A stretch of DNA of 14,099 nucleotides from positions 71,889-85,987 of IMG/VR virus record IMGVR_UViG_3300032038_006501; one strand, written 5' to 3'. Shown piece after piece: positions 1 through 6,386 of this stretch (position 1 is its first letter; every line of letters begins with the position of its first letter). The notes beneath the pieces are model-generated. The model searched no databases and was not told where the DNA came from. It was given only the letters and a program-made list of their open reading frames with translations. The translations under genes and the position numbers were made by a program. This DNA is from a virus.

Positions 1-476
1 CTACTAAATTTACCTTACTAAAGTATGCGGGCAAGGATACAAATAAAACTCCAATTGGAGGAGCAACTTTTAATTTACTAGATACTAATGGTAATAAAGT
101 TCAATTCTATGAAATCATTCCTAATCAAAAATATCGTTTAACAACTTCAGAAGATAGCAGTTCTATGACTGATATTGTTACAGCCGCAGGAAAAACTGTT
201 GAAATTGAAGGTTTAGATGCGGATATTACTTATCAATTAAAAGAAATTAAAGCTCCGCAAGGATATGATTTATTAACTGAAACTATTGCAATTCAAGCTC
301 CAGATGATTTATCTTTAGTTGTAGAAGTTGCAAATAATACTCATAGCATTCTTCCTTCTACTGGTGAAGATGGTATTTATCTTTACTATTTAATTGGAGC
401 ATTTTTATTAGTTGGTGGAATTTTAGTTATTATTGCTTCTAAAAAAAATAAAAAAGATATGGACAAAATTGTATAA
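1..476 (+). CDS. C-terminal part (5' truncated by the window edge, reading frame starts at nt 3) of an LPXTG-anchored cell-wall surface protein with a Cna-B/SpaA-pilin-like domain
   Basis: Frame is open from nt 3 to the TAA at 474-476. Translation ends ...NNTHSILPSTGEDGIYLYYLIGAFLLVGGILVIIASKKNKKD, which is LPSTG followed by a hydrophobic segment and a K-rich tail, the classic sortase sorting signal. Upstream FTLLKYAGKD..PIGGATFNLLD...EIKAPQGYDLL resembles the Gram-positive pilin / Cna-B isopeptide-domain pattern. The track's ATG at 165 is internal. Confidence 0.75.
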   Translation, partial: TKFTLLKYAGKDTNKTPIGGATFNLLDTNGNKVQFYEIIPNQKYRLTTSEDSSSMTDIVTAAGKTVEIEGLDADITYQLKEIKAPQGYDLLTETIAIQAPDDLSLVVEVANNTHSILPSTGEDGIYLYYLIGAFLLVGGILVIIASKKNKKDMDKIV

Positions 477-537
477 TATCTCACTATAATTTTTTATATT
501 TGTTAGAGATAATTTTCATTTAAAATGCAATAATAGA

Positions 538-577
538 GAACTTAGCAACACTATTGTTGTTAAGTTCTTTTTTTTAT
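538..577 (+). terminator. Rho-independent terminator after the surface-protein gene
   Basis: GAACTTAGCAACA-CTAT-TGTTGTTAAGTTC forms a 13-bp stem with one G.T wobble and a 4-nt loop. A T8 run follows at 568-575. Confidence 0.7.
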
Positions 578-613
578 AGAAATAGCAGTAATTAATAAGG
601 GGTGAGACGATTC

Positions 614-784
614 ATGATAAAACTATTAAACGTAGATACTCAATATAATATTTATGAATATTTTGTAGATTCAACAGAAGATATAGCAAATCTACCTACA
701 GATAGTCCAGGGTCAACCGCATTAGTTGCAGCTACTTCCGAGGTTTACATTTTAAACAATCAGGGTCAATGAACAATTCTTTAG
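614..784 (+). CDS. Small hypothetical protein (56 aa), intact only if the TGA at 770-772 is read as Trp
   Basis: ATG 614 preceded by AAGGGGTGA. It fills the gap between the terminator and the next gene. Translation under code 4 is MIKLLNVDTQYNIYEYFVDSTEDIANLPTDSPGSTALVAATSEVYILNNQGQWTIL. The TAG stop overlaps the SD of the downstream gene. Confidence 0.3.
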
Positions 785-799
785 AAGGAGGTATATTTT

Positions 800-1096
800 A
801 TGGATATTACAACATATGCTTTAGCTAAAAAATATACTGATTCTAAAGTTATTCAAGTCTCAGAGGGTATTGTCCCGCAAATTGGAGAAAATGGAAACTG
901 GATAATTGCGGGAGTAGATAGCGGAATTAAAGCATCTTCTGAACAAGTTGAAGTAGATGGTACAGGTAAATTAAAAGTTGATTCTACTAATGGAAATCTT
1001 TTAATAGTAGATGAAGATGGACATACTATTGCAACAATTACAGGACAACAAGAAATTTCTGATGATAATATAGACGCCTTGTTTGAAGATGATTAG
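800..1096 (+). CDS. Hypothetical protein (98 aa), paralogue of the next gene
   Basis: Strong SD GAAGGAGG 8 nt upstream of ATG 800. The N-terminus (TTYALAKKYTDSK) and C-terminus (ISDDNIDALFEDD) match motifs in the 1105-1404 product. Confidence 0.6.
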   Translation: MDITTYALAKKYTDSKVIQVSEGIVPQIGENGNWIIAGVDSGIKASSEQVEVDGTGKLKVDSTNGNLLIVDEDGHTIATITGQQEISDDNIDALFEDD

Positions 1097-1104
1097 GAGA
1101 AAAA

Positions 1105-1404
1105 ATGACACAGTATCTTAGTTATGAGGGTCTTCAAAAATATGATGAAAAACTCAAAAATTGAGTGCGGAATCAAGACTCTGTTTTACAACAATTAATT
1201 GGAAATGAATCAGTTTCAACTCAAATTACAAACGCTATCGCCGCACTTATTAATAGTGCTCCAACAGAATTTGATACTTTAAAAGAAGTTTCTGATTGAA
1301 TACAAGAACAAAAAATATTAAATACTCAAATTTCTGATAAATTAGATAAAATAGATGATATAGAAATAATCTCTTCCGAGGATATAGATTCTTTATTTAA
1401 TTAA
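1105..1404 (+). CDS. Hypothetical protein (99 aa) with a phage tail-fibre-like AP..DTL.E motif; needs TGA read as Trp (two in-frame TGA codons)
   Basis: SD AGGAGA precedes ATG 1105. Translation under code 4 is MTQYLSYEGLQKYDEKLKNW VRNQDSVLQQLIGNESVSTQITNAIAALINSAPTEFDTLKEVSDW IQEQ...IISSEDIDSLFN. The segment LINSAPTEFDTLKEV resembles the conserved tail-fibre N-terminal repeat (APxxLDTLxEL). The standard code breaks the ORF into fragments under 60 aa, so the track does not show it. Confidence 0.55.
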
Positions 1405-1410
1405 TATAAT

Positions 1411-1448
1411 AGGCTCGACTTTATTTTTTAAAGTCGGGCCTTTTTTTA
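1411..1448 (+). terminator. Rho-independent terminator
   Basis: AGGCTCGACTTT-ATTTTT-AAAGTCGGGCCT forms a 12-bp GC-containing stem (one T.G wobble). A T7 run follows. Confidence 0.75.
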
Positions 1449-1477
1449 TTGTCATATACCTTTTATTTTGATATAAT
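1449..1477 (+). promoter_or_regulatory. sigma70-like promoter: TTGTCA, 17-nt spacer, TATAAT
   Basis: TTGTCA at 1449-1454 and TATAAT at 1472-1477 with a 17-nt spacer, directly downstream of the terminator and ~60 nt upstream of the ATG at 1537. Confidence 0.5.
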
Positions 1478-1536
1478 TATATATAAAGAAATAACAGTGA
1501 ATATGCAAAAAGACTTCAATTGAAGGAGAATCAGGA

Positions 1537-1824
1537 ATGAGAATTAACATAATAAACAGCTATCTCAAAGAAGTAAATATAAATCCAAGATACATAACCC
1601 GAGCATATATAGATGAGAACGGTAAAGCGATAGTGACGATTGTCGGGTTCGAGAGTATATGGGGCGAGTACACAAATGAGGGCTATCAACTTCCATCAGA
1701 ATATACAATAGATATGGAATCTTACGAGCGCATCGTAGCATATATGGATACGGTAGAAAAACAGCAATACAAACTTAGTGAGTTAAATGATAAGCTGTGC
1801 GAACTTGGAATCAAGGTGAGTTAG
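1537..1824 (+). CDS. Hypothetical small protein A (95 aa), first gene of the GC-rich cassette
   Basis: SD GAAGGAG upstream. The ORF is open in the standard code and uses TGG for Trp. The C-terminus ...CELGIKVS is encoded by the junction repeat. Its TAG stop abuts the next ATG (TAGATG). Confidence 0.6.
   Translation: MRINIINSYLKEVNINPRYITRAYIDENGKAIVTIVGFESIWGEYTNEGYQLPSEYTIDMESYERIVAYMDTVEKQQYKLSELNDKLCELGIKVS
1799..1817 (+). repeat. Junction repeat copy 1: GCGAACTTGGAATCAAGGT
   Basis: First of three direct copies at the 3' ends of consecutive genes. It encodes (C)ELGIKV and contains the SD (AAGGTGA) for the next gene. Confidence 0.8.
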
Positions 1825-2136
1825 ATGGATGAAAACGAAATGATAGTGTGTGAGTTTCTACGCAAAATTGCACCGCCACGCGAGTGGAAATACCTTGGCG
1901 AAGTCGAGCATTACTGGATTAGTCAACTTTGTGACGAGTTGAACAAGCAGCTCAAGGCTGAGAACGCCAAACTGCGCAAGTATGCCAAGCTGTACGCTGG
2001 CGCAGTCAAGATTATTTGTGACCTATGCCCATACTGCGATGACTTCGAGACATGTAAAGACACGGAGGTTGAGCCGATGAGTGAAGGATGCGCTCTGCAC
2101 ATGGAAATGTGCGAACTTGGAATCGAGATAGACTAG
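1825..2136 (+). CDS. Hypothetical Cys-rich small protein B (103 aa)
   Basis: GC-rich codon usage (CTG, GCC, CGC). Cys-rich (CDLCPYCDDFETC...). The C-terminus ...MCELGIEID lies in the repeat. TAGATG junction with gene C. Confidence 0.6.
   Translation: MDENEMIVCEFLRKIAPPREWKYLGEVEHYWISQLCDELNKQLKAENAKLRKYAKLYAGAVKIICDLCPYCDDFETCKDTEVEPMSEGCALHMEMCELGIEID
2111..2129 (+). repeat. Junction repeat copy 2: GCGAACTTGGAATCGAGAT
   Basis: 16 of 19 positions identical to copy 1, including the TG(T/C)GCG lead-in. Confidence 0.8.
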
Positions 2137-2430
2137 ATGGCTAAGTATGTTGGCTTCAAGATTGGCAAAGTACATGAAAGCCATGTAATCAGTGAATACT
2201 ACTGTGGCAGTTGCGGGTTTCCCGTCACTGACCACGACAGCTTTTGCCCAGAATGCGGTGGAGCATTTCACGAGTGCGACGTAAGCAATCTCGAAAACGA
2301 GAATAAAAAGTTGCGGGAGTTGATTGACGAAGTACACGAGATGCTTTACACTGATAGGGCTGGTATGTTCCATAAGTTGATTCTTTCAGAATTGGAAGAT
2401 GGTATGCGCGAACTTGGAATTGAGGTATAA
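2137..2430 (+). CDS. Hypothetical zinc-ribbon small protein C (97 aa)
   Basis: CGSCG...CPECGG pattern (two CxxC pairs). The C-terminus ...MRELGIEV lies in the repeat. The TAA stop is followed one nt later by the next ATG. Confidence 0.6.
   Translation: MAKYVGFKIGKVHESHVISEYYCGSCGFPVTDHDSFCPECGGAFHECDVSNLENENKKLRELIDEVHEMLYTDRAGMFHKLILSELEDGMRELGIEV
2408..2426 (+). repeat. Junction repeat copy 3: GCGAACTTGGAATTGAGGT
   Basis: Third copy. The GAGGTA within it serves as SD for gene D. Confidence 0.8.
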
Positions 2431-2431
2431 A

Positions 2432-2779
2432 ATGGATGATTGTATGAGTTTTCCGCCATTATGGCAAGACTTCGTTGCAAAGTACCAATTTCGAGACAGA
2501 GAAGAGGTCTATACCAACGGCTCGAAACTGATACCTGTATTTCGCATCGAGCAGATGATGGAGCATTACCACGAGCATATTGAAGAAGAAAACGAAAAAC
2601 TCAAAATGCAGGTCGAAGCATTAAAGAATTATGCGCACGTTTTAAAGCTGTGCAAGGATCAAGCCTATTTGTGTGAATACTGCACATTTAATGGTATCGA
2701 TTTCGAACACAACGATATCAATTGCACTATCAATTTCAGCAAATTGCGAAAAAAGGCAGGGATGCAGAAAGAAAATTGA
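2432..2779 (+). CDS. Hypothetical Cys-containing small protein D (115 aa). It ends at TGA 2777-2779 in the standard code, and 4 codons later at TAA 2789-2791 if TGA is read as Trp.
   Basis: ATG 2432 with the GAGGTA SD is preferred over the overlapping track start at 2399. Last gene of the GC-rich block. Confidence 0.5.
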   Translation: MDDCMSFPPLWQDFVAKYQFRDREEVYTNGSKLIPVFRIEQMMEHYHEHIEEENEKLKMQVEALKNYAHVLKLCKDQAYLCEYCTFNGIDFEHNDINCTINFSKLRKKAGMQKEN

Positions 2780-2793
2780 GGAGATAATTAATA

Positions 2794-3402
2794 ATGGATA
2801 AAGTTACTATTATAGAAATTACCGAACATCCAATTGAAATTATTTCAAAAGGAGCAGGAACTAGCTATAAAAAAATTAATAATTCGTGACAAAGAGTTCA
2901 AACATGTATTAAAAATGGACATTTATCTGTAACTGAGTTTGCTCATATTAATTTTAAAATTGATGGAATTTCAAGAAGCTGTTTAGCACAATTAACTCGT
3001 CATCGTCTAATGTCTTTTTGTGTTGAATCTCAACGTTATGTCAAATATAATTTTAAAGATAATAATTGATATGTAATGCCAAAGGCTTTTAAAAAATCTA
3101 ATGCTTGAACTAGAAGATATATTTATGAAATGCGTAATGCAGCTTTAAGTTATAGACAAGCTATAGAAGATGGTATTAAACCAGAAGATGCTAGATTTCT
3201 TCTCCCAGAAGCAACAAAAACAAATTTAACTTGCGGGATGAATCTTAGAGAGTTTTTTAATTTTCTTAATTTAAGGCTTGATCCGCATGCACAATGAGAA
3301 ATTAGAGAATTGGCAGAAGAAATGTTTAATCAAGTATTAAATTATAATAATGAATGAAAAACTATTCTATCCTATTGGAAAGAAACTTGTTTTAATAAAT
3401 AA
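2794..3402 (+). CDS. thyX: Flavin-dependent thymidylate synthase ThyX (202 aa), intact only under translation table 4 (five in-frame TGA codons)
   Basis: SD GGAGAT upstream. The ThyX signature motif RHR-x7-S is present ([16 protein letters not shown]). Upstream matches include [15 protein letters not shown] (~ GHETPFEHIVFTFHV in Thermotoga ThyX). [15 protein letters not shown] aligns with T. maritima NFLNLRADSHAQWEI, and the W there is encoded by TGA. The standard-code track shows only sub-threshold fragments. Confidence 0.85.
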
Positions 3403-3408
3403 TTTTCT

Positions 3409-3438
3409 TTGTCAGTTGTTTTAAAAATATAGTATAAT
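3409..3438 (+). promoter_or_regulatory. sigma70-like promoter: TTGTCA, 18-nt spacer, TATAAT
   Basis: TTGTCA at 3409-3414 and TATAAT at 3433-3438, 25 nt upstream of the 3464 ATG. Confidence 0.5.
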
Positions 3439-3463
3439 AATATAAAAGAAAGGAGCAAGAGTA

Positions 3464-3643
3464 ATGACTAGAAAGAAAAAGCATTATAAACCAATACATA
3501 TTATGTCTAGCATAGAGCATACTCTTGCTCTAATGCCAAAATTTTATCCTGCTTCTCGTTGTGGGATAATTGGAGATACTTCTTATAATAGAAGAAAAGA
3601 AAAAAGAAATTTCCAAAGAGAACTCCAAGATGAGGGATATTAA
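3464..3643 (+). CDS. Small basic hypothetical protein (59 aa), first gene of the methyltransferase operon
   Basis: SD AAAGGAG 8 nt upstream of ATG 3464. Translation MTRKKKHYKPIHIM...NRRKEKRNFQRELQDEGY is Lys/Arg-rich. The stop lies 2 nt before the next ATG. It is below the track's length cut-off. Confidence 0.4.
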   Translation: MTRKKKHYKPIHIMSSIEHTLALMPKFYPASRCGIIGDTSYNRRKEKRNFQRELQDEGY

Positions 3644-3645
3644 AG

Positions 3646-4212
3646 ATGATTACTCAATATTCTTTTGGATTGAATACTCATGCAAGCAAGAATAATAATG
3701 TAAAAGATATTTGGAAAACTTGGAGTTGTGAAGAGATCCGTGCAGATTTACAACCCAATAGAAGTGCAATGATTAATATTTGTCAAAATTTAACTTCTGA
3801 TTTTAATAAAGGTACAATTATTAGAAGTCACAACGCTTTTCTTGGTAAAAGTGTATATATGATAGGTAAAAGAAAATATGATAAAAGAGGTGCTGTAGGT
3901 ACTTATCATTTAGAAACAGTTTATCATGCAGATACTTTTGAAGAAGTATTTACTTTATTAAAATCTCAAGGATATTTAATTTTGGCTGTTGATAATATTG
4001 AAAAATATAATCCAATAGCATTGAATGAAATAAGACTTCCATATTCTACTGCATTTGTTTATGGAGAAGAAAATGCGGGATTAGATGAAAAAACTATTAA
4101 GATGTGTGATGCTATGGTCTATATTAAGAATATTGGAAGTGTGCGGTCAATGAATGTAGGATGTGCCGCGAGCTGTTGTATGTATGAATATTCAAAACAA
4201 TGGAGGATATAA
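3646..4212 (+). CDS. SPOUT-class (SpoU/TrmH/TrmL family) RNA 2'-O-ribose methyltransferase (188 aa)
   Basis: The three SpoU motifs are present: NKGTIIRSHNAFLGKSVYMIG (N.G.IIR..A.G), FVYGEENAGLDEKTI (vFG.E..GL) and VYIKNIGSVRSMNVGCAASCCMYEY (IPM.G..RS.N...A..I..YE). The SPOUT core (~150 aa) is TrmL-sized, with a ~40-aa N-terminal extension. Confidence 0.8.
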   Translation: MITQYSFGLNTHASKNNNVKDIWKTWSCEEIRADLQPNRSAMINICQNLTSDFNKGTIIRSHNAFLGKSVYMIGKRKYDKRGAVGTYHLETVYHADTFEEVFTLLKSQGYLILAVDNIEKYNPIALNEIRLPYSTAFVYGEENAGLDEKTIKMCDAMVYIKNIGSVRSMNVGCAASCCMYEYSKQWRI

Positions 4213-4213
4213 A

Positions 4214-4948
4214 ATGAATCGAGCTAAAAGTCCTATGACTTATTATTCTAGTGATTTTCATTTTGGACATAATAGTCAATGGATTGATAATGATGGAATT
4301 CTACATAATCGAGGAATTATTACTTTTGAACGTCATCAATTTAAAACTATTAAAGAGCATGATGTCTATCTTATTCAATTAATCACAAATTGGTCTCAAC
4401 GCTGGGCAAAAGGTTCTGTTTTTTGGTTCCTTGGAGACTGGGGAAGTTTAGAATATCTTTGGATTATTCAACTTTTAAAAGATAATGGAATTGTTACTAA
4501 GATGATTCTTGGTAATCATGATTCTGTTTCTGATATCCCAATTTTTAAGCAATATTTTGATGAAGTTTATCAATATCCAGTCTTTATTTCTCAAAAACTG
4601 GTTCTTTCTCATTTTCCTGTAGCTGTTTATCCCGACCAAATTAATGTATGCGGTCATTTGCATGGAAGTAAATTAAAAGATGATAATCATGTCATAGCTT
4701 CTATTCATGTAGCTAATTATAATGCAATTTCTGATAAGAATCTTGCAGCAACTTTTAGTAAACTTCCAAAATTCACTCGTCGTTTTCTCTACGAGCCTTG
4801 GGCCGCAGATTATGTTTTTATTCAACCTAAAGAAGATGTAGTAATGGATAGAAATGGCAATATTGATCTTTCTGCATCTAGACTACTTCAAAGATTTAAT
4901 AAAGAAAAAAGGGATAAGAATGACCCTTATCAACCTTTTGTAGGATAA
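4214..4948 (+). CDS. Calcineurin-like metallophosphoesterase (244 aa), translationally coupled to the methyltransferase
   Basis: ATG 4214 lies 1 nt after the upstream stop, with GGAGGA as SD. The track's longer start at 4163 is rejected. Motifs SDFHFGH (DxH), GDWG (GDxx), GNHD and GHLHG (GHxH) are present. Confidence 0.8.
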   Translation: MNRAKSPMTYYSSDFHFGHNSQWIDNDGILHNRGIITFERHQFKTIKEHDVYLIQLITNWSQRWAKGSVFWFLGDWGSLEYLWIIQLLKDNGIVTKMILGNHDSVSDIPIFKQYFDEVYQYPVFISQKLVLSHFPVAVYPDQINVCGHLHGSKLKDDNHVIASIHVANYNAISDKNLAATFSKLPKFTRRFLYEPWAADYVFIQPKEDVVMDRNGNIDLSASRLLQRFNKEKRDKNDPYQPFVG

Positions 4949-4966
4949 TTTAAGAGGAGTTTTTTT

Positions 4967-5227
4967 ATGATTTATCAAATTGTAGCAAAAGAAAAACAAA
5001 TTGAAAATGAATGTGATGTTTGTACACTAGTTGTACCTACTTATTTAGAAGATTTTAATGAGAAAAAGGGATATAATTTTATTAATGAAGAACGTTTCTC
5101 TACTGATCTTGTAGATACTAAATTCCGTTATGTATCTGCTGATAATATTGTACAATTAAAAATTGCAATTTCAGAATTCAATCAAACAATTGGAGAAAAT
5201 GTAATTTCTCTTATTGAATTAATTTAA
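4967..5227 (+). CDS. Hypothetical protein (86 aa)
   Basis: SD AAGAGGAG upstream of ATG 4967. No recognisable motif. Confidence 0.5.
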   Translation: MIYQIVAKEKQIENECDVCTLVVPTYLEDFNEKKGYNFINEERFSTDLVDTKFRYVSADNIVQLKIAISEFNQTIGENVISLIELI

Positions 5228-5230
5228 TTT

Positions 5231-5260
5231 TTGACAGTCTCCCTTTTTCTATGATATAAT
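5231..5260 (+). promoter_or_regulatory. sigma70-like promoter: TTGACA, 18-nt spacer, TGaTATAAT (extended -10)
   Basis: TTGACA at 5231-5236 and TATAAT at 5255-5260 preceded by TG. It lies ~30 nt upstream of the 5292 ATG. Confidence 0.55.
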
Positions 5261-5291
5261 TATATTACAGAAAAGGAAAGGAGACTTAAAT

Positions 5292-5753
5292 ATGGAGTCC
5301 GACTTGAAGATTTTGCCACATGATATGCGTTTTTTTGAAATGGCAAAAGCTGAAGCAGAAAAAGGAACTTTTCCTCGATTTAAAATAGGATGCGTTGTAG
5401 TATATCGAGGAAAAGTTATTTCTTCTGCTTTTAATACACAAAAGCCAGACCCTGTGCAAAAGAAATATAACTCTTATAGAAAATTTAATAATATGAACAA
5501 TAAGGGTTGTATTAATCATTCTATTCATGCTGAAATTAGAGCATTAAAGCATATTTCTTATCCAATGTCTCAAAAAATAAATTGGTCTAAAGTTAAGATT
5601 TTTACTTATAGAATTAGTCCAGGTTTACCTTATGGACATGGAATGAGTCGTCCTTGTCCAGCTTGTATGCAATTTATTATGAATCACGGTATTCGTCAAA
5701 TTTATTATAGTACAGATATTGGATATGCAAAGGAGATAATTGAAGGATGCTAG
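5292..5753 (+). CDS. dCMP / cytidine deaminase family zinc enzyme (153 aa)
   Basis: HAEIRAL (H-A-E zinc/catalytic motif) and RPCPACMQFIMNHGIRQIYY (PCxxC). SD AAAGGAAAGGAG upstream. Confidence 0.8.
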   Translation: MESDLKILPHDMRFFEMAKAEAEKGTFPRFKIGCVVVYRGKVISSAFNTQKPDPVQKKYNSYRKFNNMNNKGCINHSIHAEIRALKHISYPMSQKINWSKVKIFTYRISPGLPYGHGMSRPCPACMQFIMNHGIRQIYYSTDIGYAKEIIEGC

Positions 5754-6022
5754 CTAGAATATATACTTCTAAAGAAATTCAAAATATATTAAAAAAGCAT
5801 AATGATGAATTAGATACTTGTTATACTATTTGTTATAAACAAAATGAGCCATATTTTTATTTACAAGAATTTAAAGATGGAAAATGACAAAATAAAAAAT
5901 TAACACAAGAAGAATCTAAAGAACTATTACTTAAAGATTTCTTTTATCAAATTGTTCCTAAATATTGGCATCTTTATTGTGATAATATATGTGGACATTA
6001 TATTTTAGTATGGGAAATGTAA
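5747..6022 (+). CDS. Hypothetical protein (91 aa), needs one TGA read as Trp; overlaps the deaminase stop (ATGCTAG)
   Basis: Open from ATG 5747 to TAA 6020-6022 under code 4 (…EFKDGKW QNKKLTQEE…). It is truncated in the standard code and absent from the track. Confidence 0.45.
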
Positions 6023-6023
6023 T

Positions 6024-6386
6024 ATGCCTTATAGCATGAAACCAATAGTTGGAATAATTGGTAGTAGGTCAATTACAACTTTAAATTTAGATTTATTTAT
6101 AGATAAAACTCATGTTGGAGAAATAGTAAGTGGCGGAGCTAATGGTGTAGATAAAATTGCAGAAAATTGAGCTAAAAAAAATAAAATCGAGTTTATTGCA
6201 ATGTTACCTAATTATAAATTATTAGGAAGTCATTGAGCTCCACTAAAAAGAGATGAAGATATTGTAGATTATTGTGATTTAATTATTTGCTTTTGAGATA
6301 CAAAATCTTCTGGTAGTAAATATACTATAAATTATGCCTTAAAAACAAGTAAACAAATCATTTTACATGAAATTATAGACAGATAG
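6024..6386 (+). CDS. SLOG-family protein (DUF2493 / DprA-Smf-like Rossmann fold), 120 aa; requires three TGA read as Trp
   Basis: Translation under code 4 is MPYSMKPIVGIIGSRSITTLNLDLF...VSGGANGVDKIAENW AKKNKIEFIAMLPNYKLLGSHW APLKRDEDIVDYCDLIICFW DTKSSGSKYTINYALK. The GSR...GGA.G.D..A..WA...........G.RN pattern is typical of phage DUF2493 proteins. Confidence 0.6.

Follow-up and report, generated by a model that had tools for sequence, protein, structure and literature searches.

The stretch of DNA analyzed here, hereafter the window, comprises 14,099 nucleotides (nt) of IMG/VR virus record IMGVR_UViG_3300032038_006501 (positions 71,889 to 85,987). It is a phage fragment of ~28% guanine plus cytosine (GC) with in-frame TGA codons, and its genes include tail-fibre-like genes and those for ThyX, a SpoU methylase, a dCMP deaminase, GyrB/GyrA-like subunits, and a ligase. 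The assignment of ThyX was based on PDB sequence matches together with the Pfam model Thy1. Four small genes, designated A, B, C, and D, are located between a hairpin and promoter on the left and the ThyX gene (ATG at 2794) on the right, and this cassette (positions 1537 to 2791) is the subject of the present analysis. The promoter is predicted to be the start of a transcript that carries A to D and ThyX. The features of the cassette and its borders are listed in Table 1.

A repeat search returned a single family of three-copy direct repeats in the window, at 1795 to 1818, 2107 to 2130, and 2404 to 2427, the copies being 83 to 100% identical. The 13-mer GCGAACTTGGAAT was found exactly at 1799, 2111, and 2408 and nowhere else in the window, compared with a chance expectation of 0.3 matches even when two mismatches were permitted. 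The three-copy repeat and its exact 13-mer establish that the thrice-repeated junction element noted in the original prediction is real. Each copy encodes (C/R)ELGI(K/E)(V/I) within the last 7 to 9 codons of A, B, or C and ends 4 to 6 nt ahead of the next ATG. The proteins themselves had been described as otherwise unrelated. They instead share one architecture, comprising a variable N-terminal module (N-module), an ENxKLR(E) motif, a variable and often Cys-rich C-terminal module (C-module), and an end motif, and they belong to one very large family. The end motif, (M/L/A)(R/C/H)ELG(I/V)(E/K/G)(V/A/I), lies in the last ~10 residues and reads LCELGIKVS in A, MCELGIEID in B, and MRELGIEV in C. 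The end of D, LRKKAGMQKEN, is the usual end of its C-module in nine of nine homologues (GLRKKAGM-EQ/DA/DS). The internal motif, ENxKLR(E/K), is present in B, C, and D, with the fused form LNDKLCELG in A, and constitutes a second junction where previously the gene ends had been taken as the only one. The N-module of C has two CxxC knuckles (CGSCG..x13..CPECG) and scored 22.6 bits with Zn_ribbon_3 (E = 7e-5), which is below the cutoff of 27.

Table 1. Features of the four-gene cassette and its borders, in window coordinates (SD, Shine-Dalgarno site)
Feature	Position	Strand	Remarks
Terminator-like hairpin and T-run	1411-1441	+	13-bp stem, then TTTTTTT; closes upstream tail-fibre-like block
Predicted sigma-70-type promoter, TTGTCA-17-TATAAT	1449-1477	+	11/12 hexamer matches; TG extension before -10
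SD of gene A, AAGGAG	1523-1528	+	8 nt ahead of ATG; read from sequence
Gene A, 95 amino acids	1537-1824	+	N-module 1537-1776, then fused ..ELNDKL-CELGIKVS
Junction copy 1, TGTGCGAACTTGGAATCAAGGTG (C-E-L-G-I-K-V)	1796-1818	+	AAGGTGA is the predicted SD for B; TAG 1822-1824 abuts ATG 1825
Gene B, 103 amino acids	1825-2136	+	N-module 1825-1959, internal motif, Cys-rich C-module, end motif
Internal motif of B, GAG AAC GCC AAA CTG CGC AAG (ENAKLRK)	1960-1980	+	
Junction copy 2, TGTGCGAACTTGGAATCGAGATA (C-E-L-G-I-E-I)	2108-2130	+	TAG 2134-2136 abuts ATG 2137
Gene C, 97 amino acids	2137-2430	+	Zinc-ribbon-like N-module (CxxC..CxxC, 2137-2298), internal motif, Cys-free C-module, MRELGIEV
Internal motif of C, GAG AAT AAA AAG TTG CGG GAG (ENKKLRE)	2299-2319	+	
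Junction copy 3, TGCGCGAACTTGGAATTGAGGTA (R-E-L-G-I-E-V)	2405-2427	+	GAGGT is the predicted SD for D; TAA, A, ATG 2432
Gene D, 115 amino acids	2432-2779	+	N-module 2432-2587, Cys-rich C-module; 119 amino acids to TAA 2789-2791 if TGA is sense
Internal motif of D, ENEKLKM	2588-2608	+	
Variant end motif of D, LRKKAGM	2744-2764	+	
SD of ThyX, GAGGAG	2778-2783	+	Overlaps TGA stop of D; ThyX ATG 2794

A scan of IMG/VR for the repeat gave three contigs of 52 to 59% GC in which genes ended in ..RELGIEV followed by the next start, and neighbouring genes in these contigs had the same end peptide in other codons, such as GAGCTGGGAATCGAGGTT or GAGCTTGGTATAGAGGTC. A C-module profile was then built from 34 diverse C-modules, with C as its first sequence. 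Among the best 8,000 candidates it matched at least 4,014 clusters at 90% identity, and when 1.84 billion cluster representatives were searched exhaustively with HMMER, 4,657 clusters (at 50% identity) had E values of ≤1e-3 and 857 had E values of ≤1e-10. Nearly all of the matching proteins were 56 to 200 amino acids long, and the match almost always reached the C terminus of the protein. The consensus of the family reads L.AENAKLRELVRDM ... DRMRELGIEVD. Members having the canonical motifs contain modules 50 to 87% identical to those of B and D, while A is linked to the family solely through its orthologue in sister phages (L005 to L007; the L numbers denote the loci compared). The matches included no named protein and none with a meaningful Pfam domain. 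Pfam, PHROGs, and NCBIfam had no model for the family, as A to D and 16 other members gave only sub-threshold coiled-coil or zinc-ribbon matches. Searches with tblastn using B and two consensus-like members against 50,697 deposited phage genomes, and with megablast using the whole window against GenBank phages, each gave zero matches; an IMG/VR scan with an alignment of the B N-module gave zero confirmed loci, and a full-text literature search for the motif strings gave irrelevant matches only. By these comparisons, A to D are four tandem paralogues of a very large and so far undescribed family of small phage proteins.

Arrays of 4 to 8 or more consecutive members were observed at L003, L009, L011, L012, L013, L015, and L020. 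The only organism label in the family was that of an Atopobiaceae metagenome-assembled genome from sheep jejunum, in which a 60% GC prophage-like region has at least seven consecutive members. In L015, a high-GC phage contig, an IS605 OrfB/TnpB (Cas12f1-like) gene at 2766 to 3941 lies a few kb upstream of the array. Lar-type genes stand separately near the arrays of L003 (2757 to 3017) and L020 (2736 to 2930), and at L012 (1131 to 1640) protein P0010 combines, in one reading frame, a family member (B-type N-module ... YMRELGVEVND) and a restriction-alleviation domain of the Lar type, PF14354.

The geometry of the junctions was compared across 41 true motif instances from 13 loci. In 41 of 41, the distance from the stop to the next start is -8 to +2 nt, and the Glu-Val codons supply a GAGGT 6 to 9 nt ahead of that start, in agreement with the earlier suggestion that the repeat embeds the Shine-Dalgarno site of the downstream gene. 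ATGA/GTGA overlaps account for 23 of these junctions and abutments of TAG and ATG for nine. The window's own three junctions, TAG-ATG at A/B and B/C and TAA-A-ATG at C/D (gaps of 0, 0, and +1 nt), fit this geometry exactly. The last codons of the end motif (ATC GAG GTN) are thus predicted to double as the Shine-Dalgarno site of the next gene. Such geometry is that of translational coupling, and because the end motif contains the site and the stop and start codons of neighbouring genes adjoin or overlap, the A-to-D array is probably translated as a coupled unit, from the one predicted promoter upstream of A.

It was also observed that A, B, and C share one reading frame and are parted only by single TAG codons (1822 to 1827 and 2134 to 2139), and the in-frame TAGATG joint occurs in 9 of the 41 family junctions elsewhere as well. 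With such a frame in a phage that recodes a stop codon, A to D might be taken for pieces of one larger gene, frameshifted or interrupted by stops, with an internal protein repeat. We attach next to no probability to this, since the recoded codon is TGA, the 22 phage tRNAs including one with the anticodon UCA and none with CUA; moreover, every open reading frame (ORF) has an ATG behind a Shine-Dalgarno site, D is in a different frame, the 23 overlapping junctions change the frame, and the homologues are separate proteins of 56 to 140 amino acids with other neighbours.

The modular nature of the family became apparent from the homologues of B, which itself is identical to protein P0001 on the 86-kb source contig. 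The search with B gave 33 small proteins having either its N-half or its C-half, and conservation among them drops immediately past ENAKLR. The C-half (ENAKLRKYA..CDLCPYCDDFETC..EPMSEGCALYMEMRELGIEV) was found behind at least six unrelated N-parts, and the N-half (ERIVCEFLRKIAPSREWxYLGEVEHYWIxELCDELNKQLKAENAKLR) ahead of at least ten unrelated C-parts. Similarly, the C-half of D was found behind at least five other N-parts, and its N-half was joined in P0038 to another C-module ending in MKELGIGVD. Different members of the cassette also share partners, as in P0014 the N-half of C is followed by the C-half of B, an arrangement also present in L005 to L007, and P0042 consists of the C-half of D behind an N-module that elsewhere is joined to the C-half of B. 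At L018 (5001 to 5372), an IMG/VR locus of 36% GC, the zinc-ribbon-like N-module of C precedes another Cys/His-rich C-module ending in RMHKLGIEKHL, placing the family in a second low-GC phage lineage as well.

A single architecture in tandem arrangement, with conserved motifs in otherwise divergent sequence, is typical of old paralogues, and plain duplication and divergence might therefore be proposed, the tandem copies having retained only two functional motifs that play no part in recombination. Against this, one N-module was found at 80 to 100% identity with many unrelated C-modules, and the reverse, a pattern that divergence alone cannot produce. Internal alignment ends are in addition enriched at the motif, and strains whose flanks are 96 to 97% identical differ by a replacement with clean ends at the two motifs (both described below). 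We therefore consider duplication and divergence alone to be very improbable and favour reassortment of half-genes.

The cassette locus, just upstream of ThyX, was recovered in three versions from five independent assemblies of sister phages (ERZ27256903, ERZ27256871, JGI 3300028805, JGI 3300031994, and ERZ27291698), with one arrangement recovered three times independently. The first version, A-B-C-D, is that of the window (source contig L004). The second, in L005, L006, and L007, consists of A', a chimera of the C N-module and the B C-module, and D'. The third is found in L017, a 150-kb contig with flanks 96 to 97% identical to the window, and lacks the C gene. Between the window and L005 to L007, all five breakpoints fall at motifs (1776, 1960, 2113/2130, 2315, and 2404), and the joint of the L005 chimera is inside the internal motif of C, GAGAACGCGAAGTTGCGC. 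Between the window and L017, identity stops right past the CTGCGC of the ENAKLR codons of B, beyond which L017 has a different C-module, and the sequences match again from GCGCGAACTTGGAATTGAGGTATAAAATG; the 29 nt at 2406 to 2434 are 100% identical in L017, where they stand behind a different C-module. Likewise, it is at the internal motif of B that identity to L003 and L005 (C-module) begins and identity to L008 and L009 (N-module) ends. The locus thus appears to be still turning over between near-identical strains. The earlier idea of a module junction was supported, with parts exchanged both among the sister phages and in phages of 52 to 60% GC, except that the unit exchanged is the half-gene and not the small gene.

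Gene A provides a further case. In the sister phages L005 to L007, the same N-module is followed by ENDKLRELV, a 38-amino-acid Cys-rich module, and LLRELGIEVTNG. Relative to these, A appears to have lost its middle module by a deletion between KLREL(V) and LRELG. Its tail, ..NDKL-CELGIKVS, joins the internal motif directly to the end motif without the module in between, and gene A can be read as the outcome of recombination between these motifs, both of which contain LREL (CTGCGNGARCTKG).

Because the contigs are metagenomic and repeats can yield chimeras, the GC-rich block or its internal order might have been stitched in at short repeats during assembly. The likelihood of such an artefact is minute, as five assemblies, which differ in sample and pipeline, have the cassette at the same position between the terminator and promoter on its left and ThyX on its right, one of its arrangements was found three times independently, and the repeats are merely 24 to 33 nt long. 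A short repeat at the 3' end of successive promoterless small genes would also suit a site-specific system, attC-like as in integrons or shufflon-like, that moves whole small genes. This too can hardly be credited, given that the repeats are direct and coding, with neither the inverted-repeat structure of attC nor the inverted orientation of shufflons, that neither the ORFs of the window nor the genes annotated with Pfam in the 20-kb source locus included an integrase or Rci-type recombinase, and that the half-gene is the exchanged unit, the second junction being inside the ORF. Integron cassettes have an attC hairpin of imperfect inverted repeats at each 3' end and an IntI integrase with attI/Pc, and shufflons have inverted 19-bp sfx repeats, an Rci recombinase, and C-terminal gene segments that invert. 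Integrons and shufflons as such were dropped as candidates in view of the absence of inverted repeats at the junctions, the copies being direct on one strand, and of a recombinase. A diversity-generating retroelement was likewise dropped, there being no reverse transcriptase and the repeats being direct and coding.

Conservation of the repeat had been attributed to the nucleotide level. Across loci of 36 to 66% GC, the RELGIEV peptide is kept and the differences are almost wholly at third codon positions, which is a signature of selection on the protein; the codons seen were GAG/GAA, CTG/CTT/TTG/CTA/CTC, GGA/GGG/GGT, ATC/ATT/ATA, and GTN. Nucleotide conservation is therefore not the sole basis of the repeat, but an additional signal of codon uniformity was indeed detected. 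When the motif codons were compared with the remainder of the same 37 genes, synonymous choice was found to be far more uniform within both motifs. In the end motif (CGC GAG CTG GGA ATC GAG GTN), Gly was GGA in 27/34 (background, 0.30; p = 6e-9) and the second Glu was GAG in 31/31 (background, 0.71; p = 3e-5). In the internal motif (GAG AAC GCC AAG CTG CGG GAG), Arg was CGG in 17/25 (background, 0.14; p = 1e-9) and Ala was GCC in 17/22 (background, 0.28; p = 2e-6). All five copies in the window lineage had the variant GAA CTT GGA AT(C/T), which was also present in high-GC contigs. Selection for the Shine-Dalgarno site would account for the GAG codon and possibly for the purine-rich GGA. The simplest reading of the remaining uniformity is concerted evolution, as would result if crossovers repeatedly land in the motif stretches.

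The same observations might be explained by a dedicated nucleotide-level element, either a recombination site or a coupling signal, lying between unrelated genes and coding for amino acids only incidentally. Such an element would account for the 13 nt that are identical in the three window copies, synonymous sites included, for codon choice much more uniform in the motifs than in the remainder of the same genes, for the embedded Shine-Dalgarno site at constant spacing from the start, and for breakpoints that fall at the repeat. It is nonetheless improbable, since the peptide is preserved through so many different codons, A to D are related genes, a Shine-Dalgarno site requires GAGG only and not seven conserved residues, and the second junction, ENAKLRE, lies mid-gene, where an inter-gene signal would be superfluous. 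An Rfam scan of the window found zero RNA families, leaving a reading of the repeat as an RNA element without support.

The original prediction held that the cassette is a GC-rich block acquired horizontally from a standard-code source of higher GC. The block is real, with 41.9% GC compared with 28.5% in the remaining window, although the range of 45 to 55% first given was somewhat too high, the peak over 300-nt windows being 48.7%. The contrast is sharpest at synonymous, third positions, where GC (GC3) was 0.41, 0.58, 0.49, and 0.48 in A, B, C, and D and 0.07 to 0.20 in each of the 18 other genes. Over 297 nt, B has 89.6% identity with a gene of a 56% GC contig, where at least six family genes form an array beside a dUTPase gene and a Lar-type gene. 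The N-half of B is 86 to 91% identical at the nucleotide level to genes in contigs of 56 to 59% GC, one of them from the window's own sample, and for its C-half the identity to a gene from a contig of 52% GC is 88%. At sites differing from the high-GC copies, the window copy of the N-half has A or T at 12 of 14 and 18 of 25 (AT-ward substitutions prevailing by 12:2 and 18:6), a bias that a gene undergoing amelioration in an AT-rich genome would be expected to show. These identities and this bias support transfer of B in the high-GC to low-GC direction, from phages of 52 to 60% GC, and on composition a high-GC origin is likely for C and D, so that horizontal acquisition was supported. The use of TGG for Trp, which had been offered as a further argument, proved weak and non-discriminating; the cassette has 4 TGG and 0 TGA codons, and the rest of the window likewise favours TGG (47, compared with 13 in-frame TGA in six genes). 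D does have the standard-code TGA stop that had been noted, at 2777 to 2779, followed four codons later by TAA (2789 to 2791).

The recipient was examined through its codons and tRNAs. Thirteen in-frame TGA codons restore full-length ORFs in six genes, with five in ThyX, three in the ORF at 6024 to 6386, two in the ORF at 1105 to 1404, and one each in three others. GyrB, GyrA, the ligase, SpoU, and Metallophos use TGG only. The cassette has zero in-frame TGA codons, and read-through of the TGA of D would add four residues up to the TAA. Just upstream of the window on the source contig (85,971 bp), ARAGORN identified 22 tRNA genes (295 to 6101), among them a 96-nt tRNA with the anticodon UCA (labelled 'SeC') beside a normal tRNA-Trp(CCA); none of the 22 has the anticodon CUA. 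The tRNA(UCA) is a candidate opal suppressor whose long variable arm leaves the inserted amino acid ambiguous, and an attempt to read this amino acid by aligning ThyX to PDB homologues gave two alignments showing Val or nothing conserved at the TGA positions. The presence of in-frame TGA in conserved genes together with a phage-encoded tRNA(UCA) indicates that the recipient phage recodes TGA by means of a tRNA(UCA) that it encodes itself, and it need not be a phage of a code-4 host. TGA-recoded phages of the same kind have been described (Borges et al., bioRxiv 10.1101/2021.08.26.457843). With regard to the host, the first window ORF (165 to 476) is the C terminus of a 602-amino-acid SpaA/GramPos_pilinBB protein (L004 6844 to 8652) which ends in LPSTG, a hydrophobic stretch, and KKNKK, the canonical sortase sorting signal. 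Such a signal on a pilin-like protein points to a walled Gram-positive host and not a mollicute.

Parallel dimeric zippers of the GCN4/bZIP type show a heptad pattern of Asn at position a and Leu at position d. In a heptad reading of the family consensus ENAKLRELVRDM, successive a positions are occupied by Asn and Val and the d positions by Leu and Met, and sub-threshold Pfam coiled-coil matches were obtained to HALZ (14.9 bits) and bZIP_2 (15.2 bits). The AlphaFold2 model of B, made with 34 sequences, has helices at 18 to 66 and 87 to 97, a poorly defined Cys loop between them at 67 to 86, and a coil tail, GIEID; ENAKLR lies in the most confident part of the long helix (predicted local distance difference test score [pLDDT] >90). 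The model of C (120 sequences) shows zinc-ribbon-like hairpins with two short strands at low confidence, helices at 44 to 71 and 79 to 92, and a coil tail. In this heptad pattern the predicted long helix may resemble the GCN4/bZIP zippers, from which it differs in lacking the basic region for DNA binding and in giving no Pfam match of significance. We infer that the helix may form a parallel dimeric leucine zipper. Our best guess is that the family comprises small dimerizing helix-loop-helix proteins in which the variable N-modules and loops carry specificity, made early from a host-type promoter in an accessory region. Lar-type, dUTPase, and helix-turn-helix genes were found near family members in the donor accessory regions, and an anti-defence or host-takeover role is putative and at best tentative.

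Taken together, the data are best explained, and we think quite likely so, if A to D are a tandem array of two-module paralogues whose half-genes are reassorted at two motif-coding stretches. Each protein consists of two exchangeable modules, an N-module extending to ENxKLRE(LV) and a C-module, often with 4 or 5 Cys, extending to (M/L)RELGIEV plus 0 to 4 residues. The repeat DNA encodes the C-terminal motif; its ATC GAG GTN is predicted to act also as the Shine-Dalgarno site of the following gene, whose start adjoins or overlaps the stop. Homologous recombination would land in the motif stretches, since these are the only sequence common to otherwise unalignable modules, and would reassort half-genes in frame, giving new N/C combinations, deletions such as that in gene A, and replacements. 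At least gene B came into the 28% GC, TGA-recoded phage from phages of 52 to 60% GC. Of this picture, the architecture, family membership, junction geometry, breakpoint positions, and foreign origin of B are observed, and recombination as the mechanism, translational coupling, transcription from the predicted promoter, zipper dimerization, and any early host-directed function are proposed.

Several observations weigh against this interpretation or limit it. Among 50 family proteins, 260 of the 501 internal BLASTP alignment ends fall within 5 amino acids of ENxKLR, compared with a randomized mean of 120 and maximum of 153; this is only an ~2-fold enrichment, and as protein pairs are not independent, it is supportive rather than decisive. 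In L017, D has lost codons 2 to 41 at a ATGATGGA/ATGGATGA microhomology away from the motifs (L017 5264 to 5300 compared with window 2406 to 2560), suggesting that illegitimate recombination also acts at the locus. Recombination at the motifs is itself inferred from mosaic patterns, neither an event nor a recombinase having been observed. The uniform codons could partly reflect shared ancestry or Shine-Dalgarno selection and not concerted evolution. The N-module of A has the lowest GC of the cassette (37%) and zero relatives in the IMG/VR scan, and whether it came from the same donor pool is uncertain. Finally, the structure models are of modest confidence (pLDDT of 74 for B and 65 for C), and neither a PDB profile search nor a Foldseek search of the B model against PDB gave any meaningful fold or sequence relative of known function.

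A more far-reaching proposal is that the motifs are maintained, down to synonymous sites, as in-frame joints for a combinatorial repertoire of small dimerizing effectors. We regard this as speculative and rather unlikely. If true, there would be a community-wide pool of half-genes, exchanged across gaps in GC (28% compared with 56 to 60%) and across genetic-code boundaries, and heterodimers formed through the shared zipper heptads could enlarge the repertoire further. The cassette would then represent a natural domain-shuffling system for fast-evolving early proteins of the anti-defence or host-takeover kind. The near-identical modules would also imply that the recoded low-GC phage shares a host cell with high-GC phages of the Atopobiaceae type.

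Other phage systems with mosaic joints provide a basis for comparison. In lambdoid phages, short conserved linker or boundary sequences lie at gene borders, and relaxed homologous recombination leads to mosaicism. As there, the joints in the cassette family are at gene or domain borders having short homology; here, in contrast, the homology is a peptide motif reused thousands of times in one family, and joints within genes and at gene ends are both used. The promoter early stem-loops (PeSLs) of T4-type phages are intergenic cassettes, each a sigma-70 early promoter followed by a stem-loop terminator, at which small ORFs shuffle (Arbiol et al. 2010, PMC2839356; Comeau et al. 2014, PMC4122927). 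The resemblance lies in short conserved repeats that carry expression signals between small nonessential ORFs of a plastic early region, with insertions, deletions, and replacements among close phages ending at the repeats. The cassette repeats differ in being coding (C-terminal peptide plus Shine-Dalgarno site, stop, and start) and in having neither promoter nor hairpin, the only strong promoter and terminator being upstream of A (1411 to 1477). A second joint is moreover present inside each ORF, so that half-genes and not whole ORFs are exchanged. The hypervariable segments of gp38, an adhesin of T-even phages, are separated by conserved glycine-rich motifs (GRMs) (Trojet et al. 2011, PMC3157838). 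Both systems have conserved motif-coding stretches within coding sequence that bound readily exchanged segments, and in both it is the protein motif that is preserved, as a structural core. Unlike A to D, which are tandem small proteins of cytoplasmic type without sequence kinship to it, gp38 is the product of one virion adhesin gene, and the motif of A to D additionally supplies the translational signals of the next gene. The cassette is thus closest in behaviour to PeSLs and to the GRMs of gp38 while being a member of neither.

These results define a very large family, with thousands of clusters, that has an unusually clean two-joint modular grammar, and they offer a concrete example of how a phage ORFan region may diversify, by in-frame exchange of half-genes at two short coding stretches, with one locus visible in three states among near-identical strains. 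The recent gene flow from phages of ~56% GC to a 28% GC, TGA-recoded phage bears on the hosts and exchange partners of recoded phages.

Outside the cassette, a GIY-YIG (homing-endonuclease-type) gene lies between the tRNA array and the pilin-like gene (L004 6138 to 6767; L017 142 to 756). A second near-consensus promoter-like site, TTGTCA-18-TATAAT with 11/12 matches, is located directly 3' of ThyX at 3409 to 3438.

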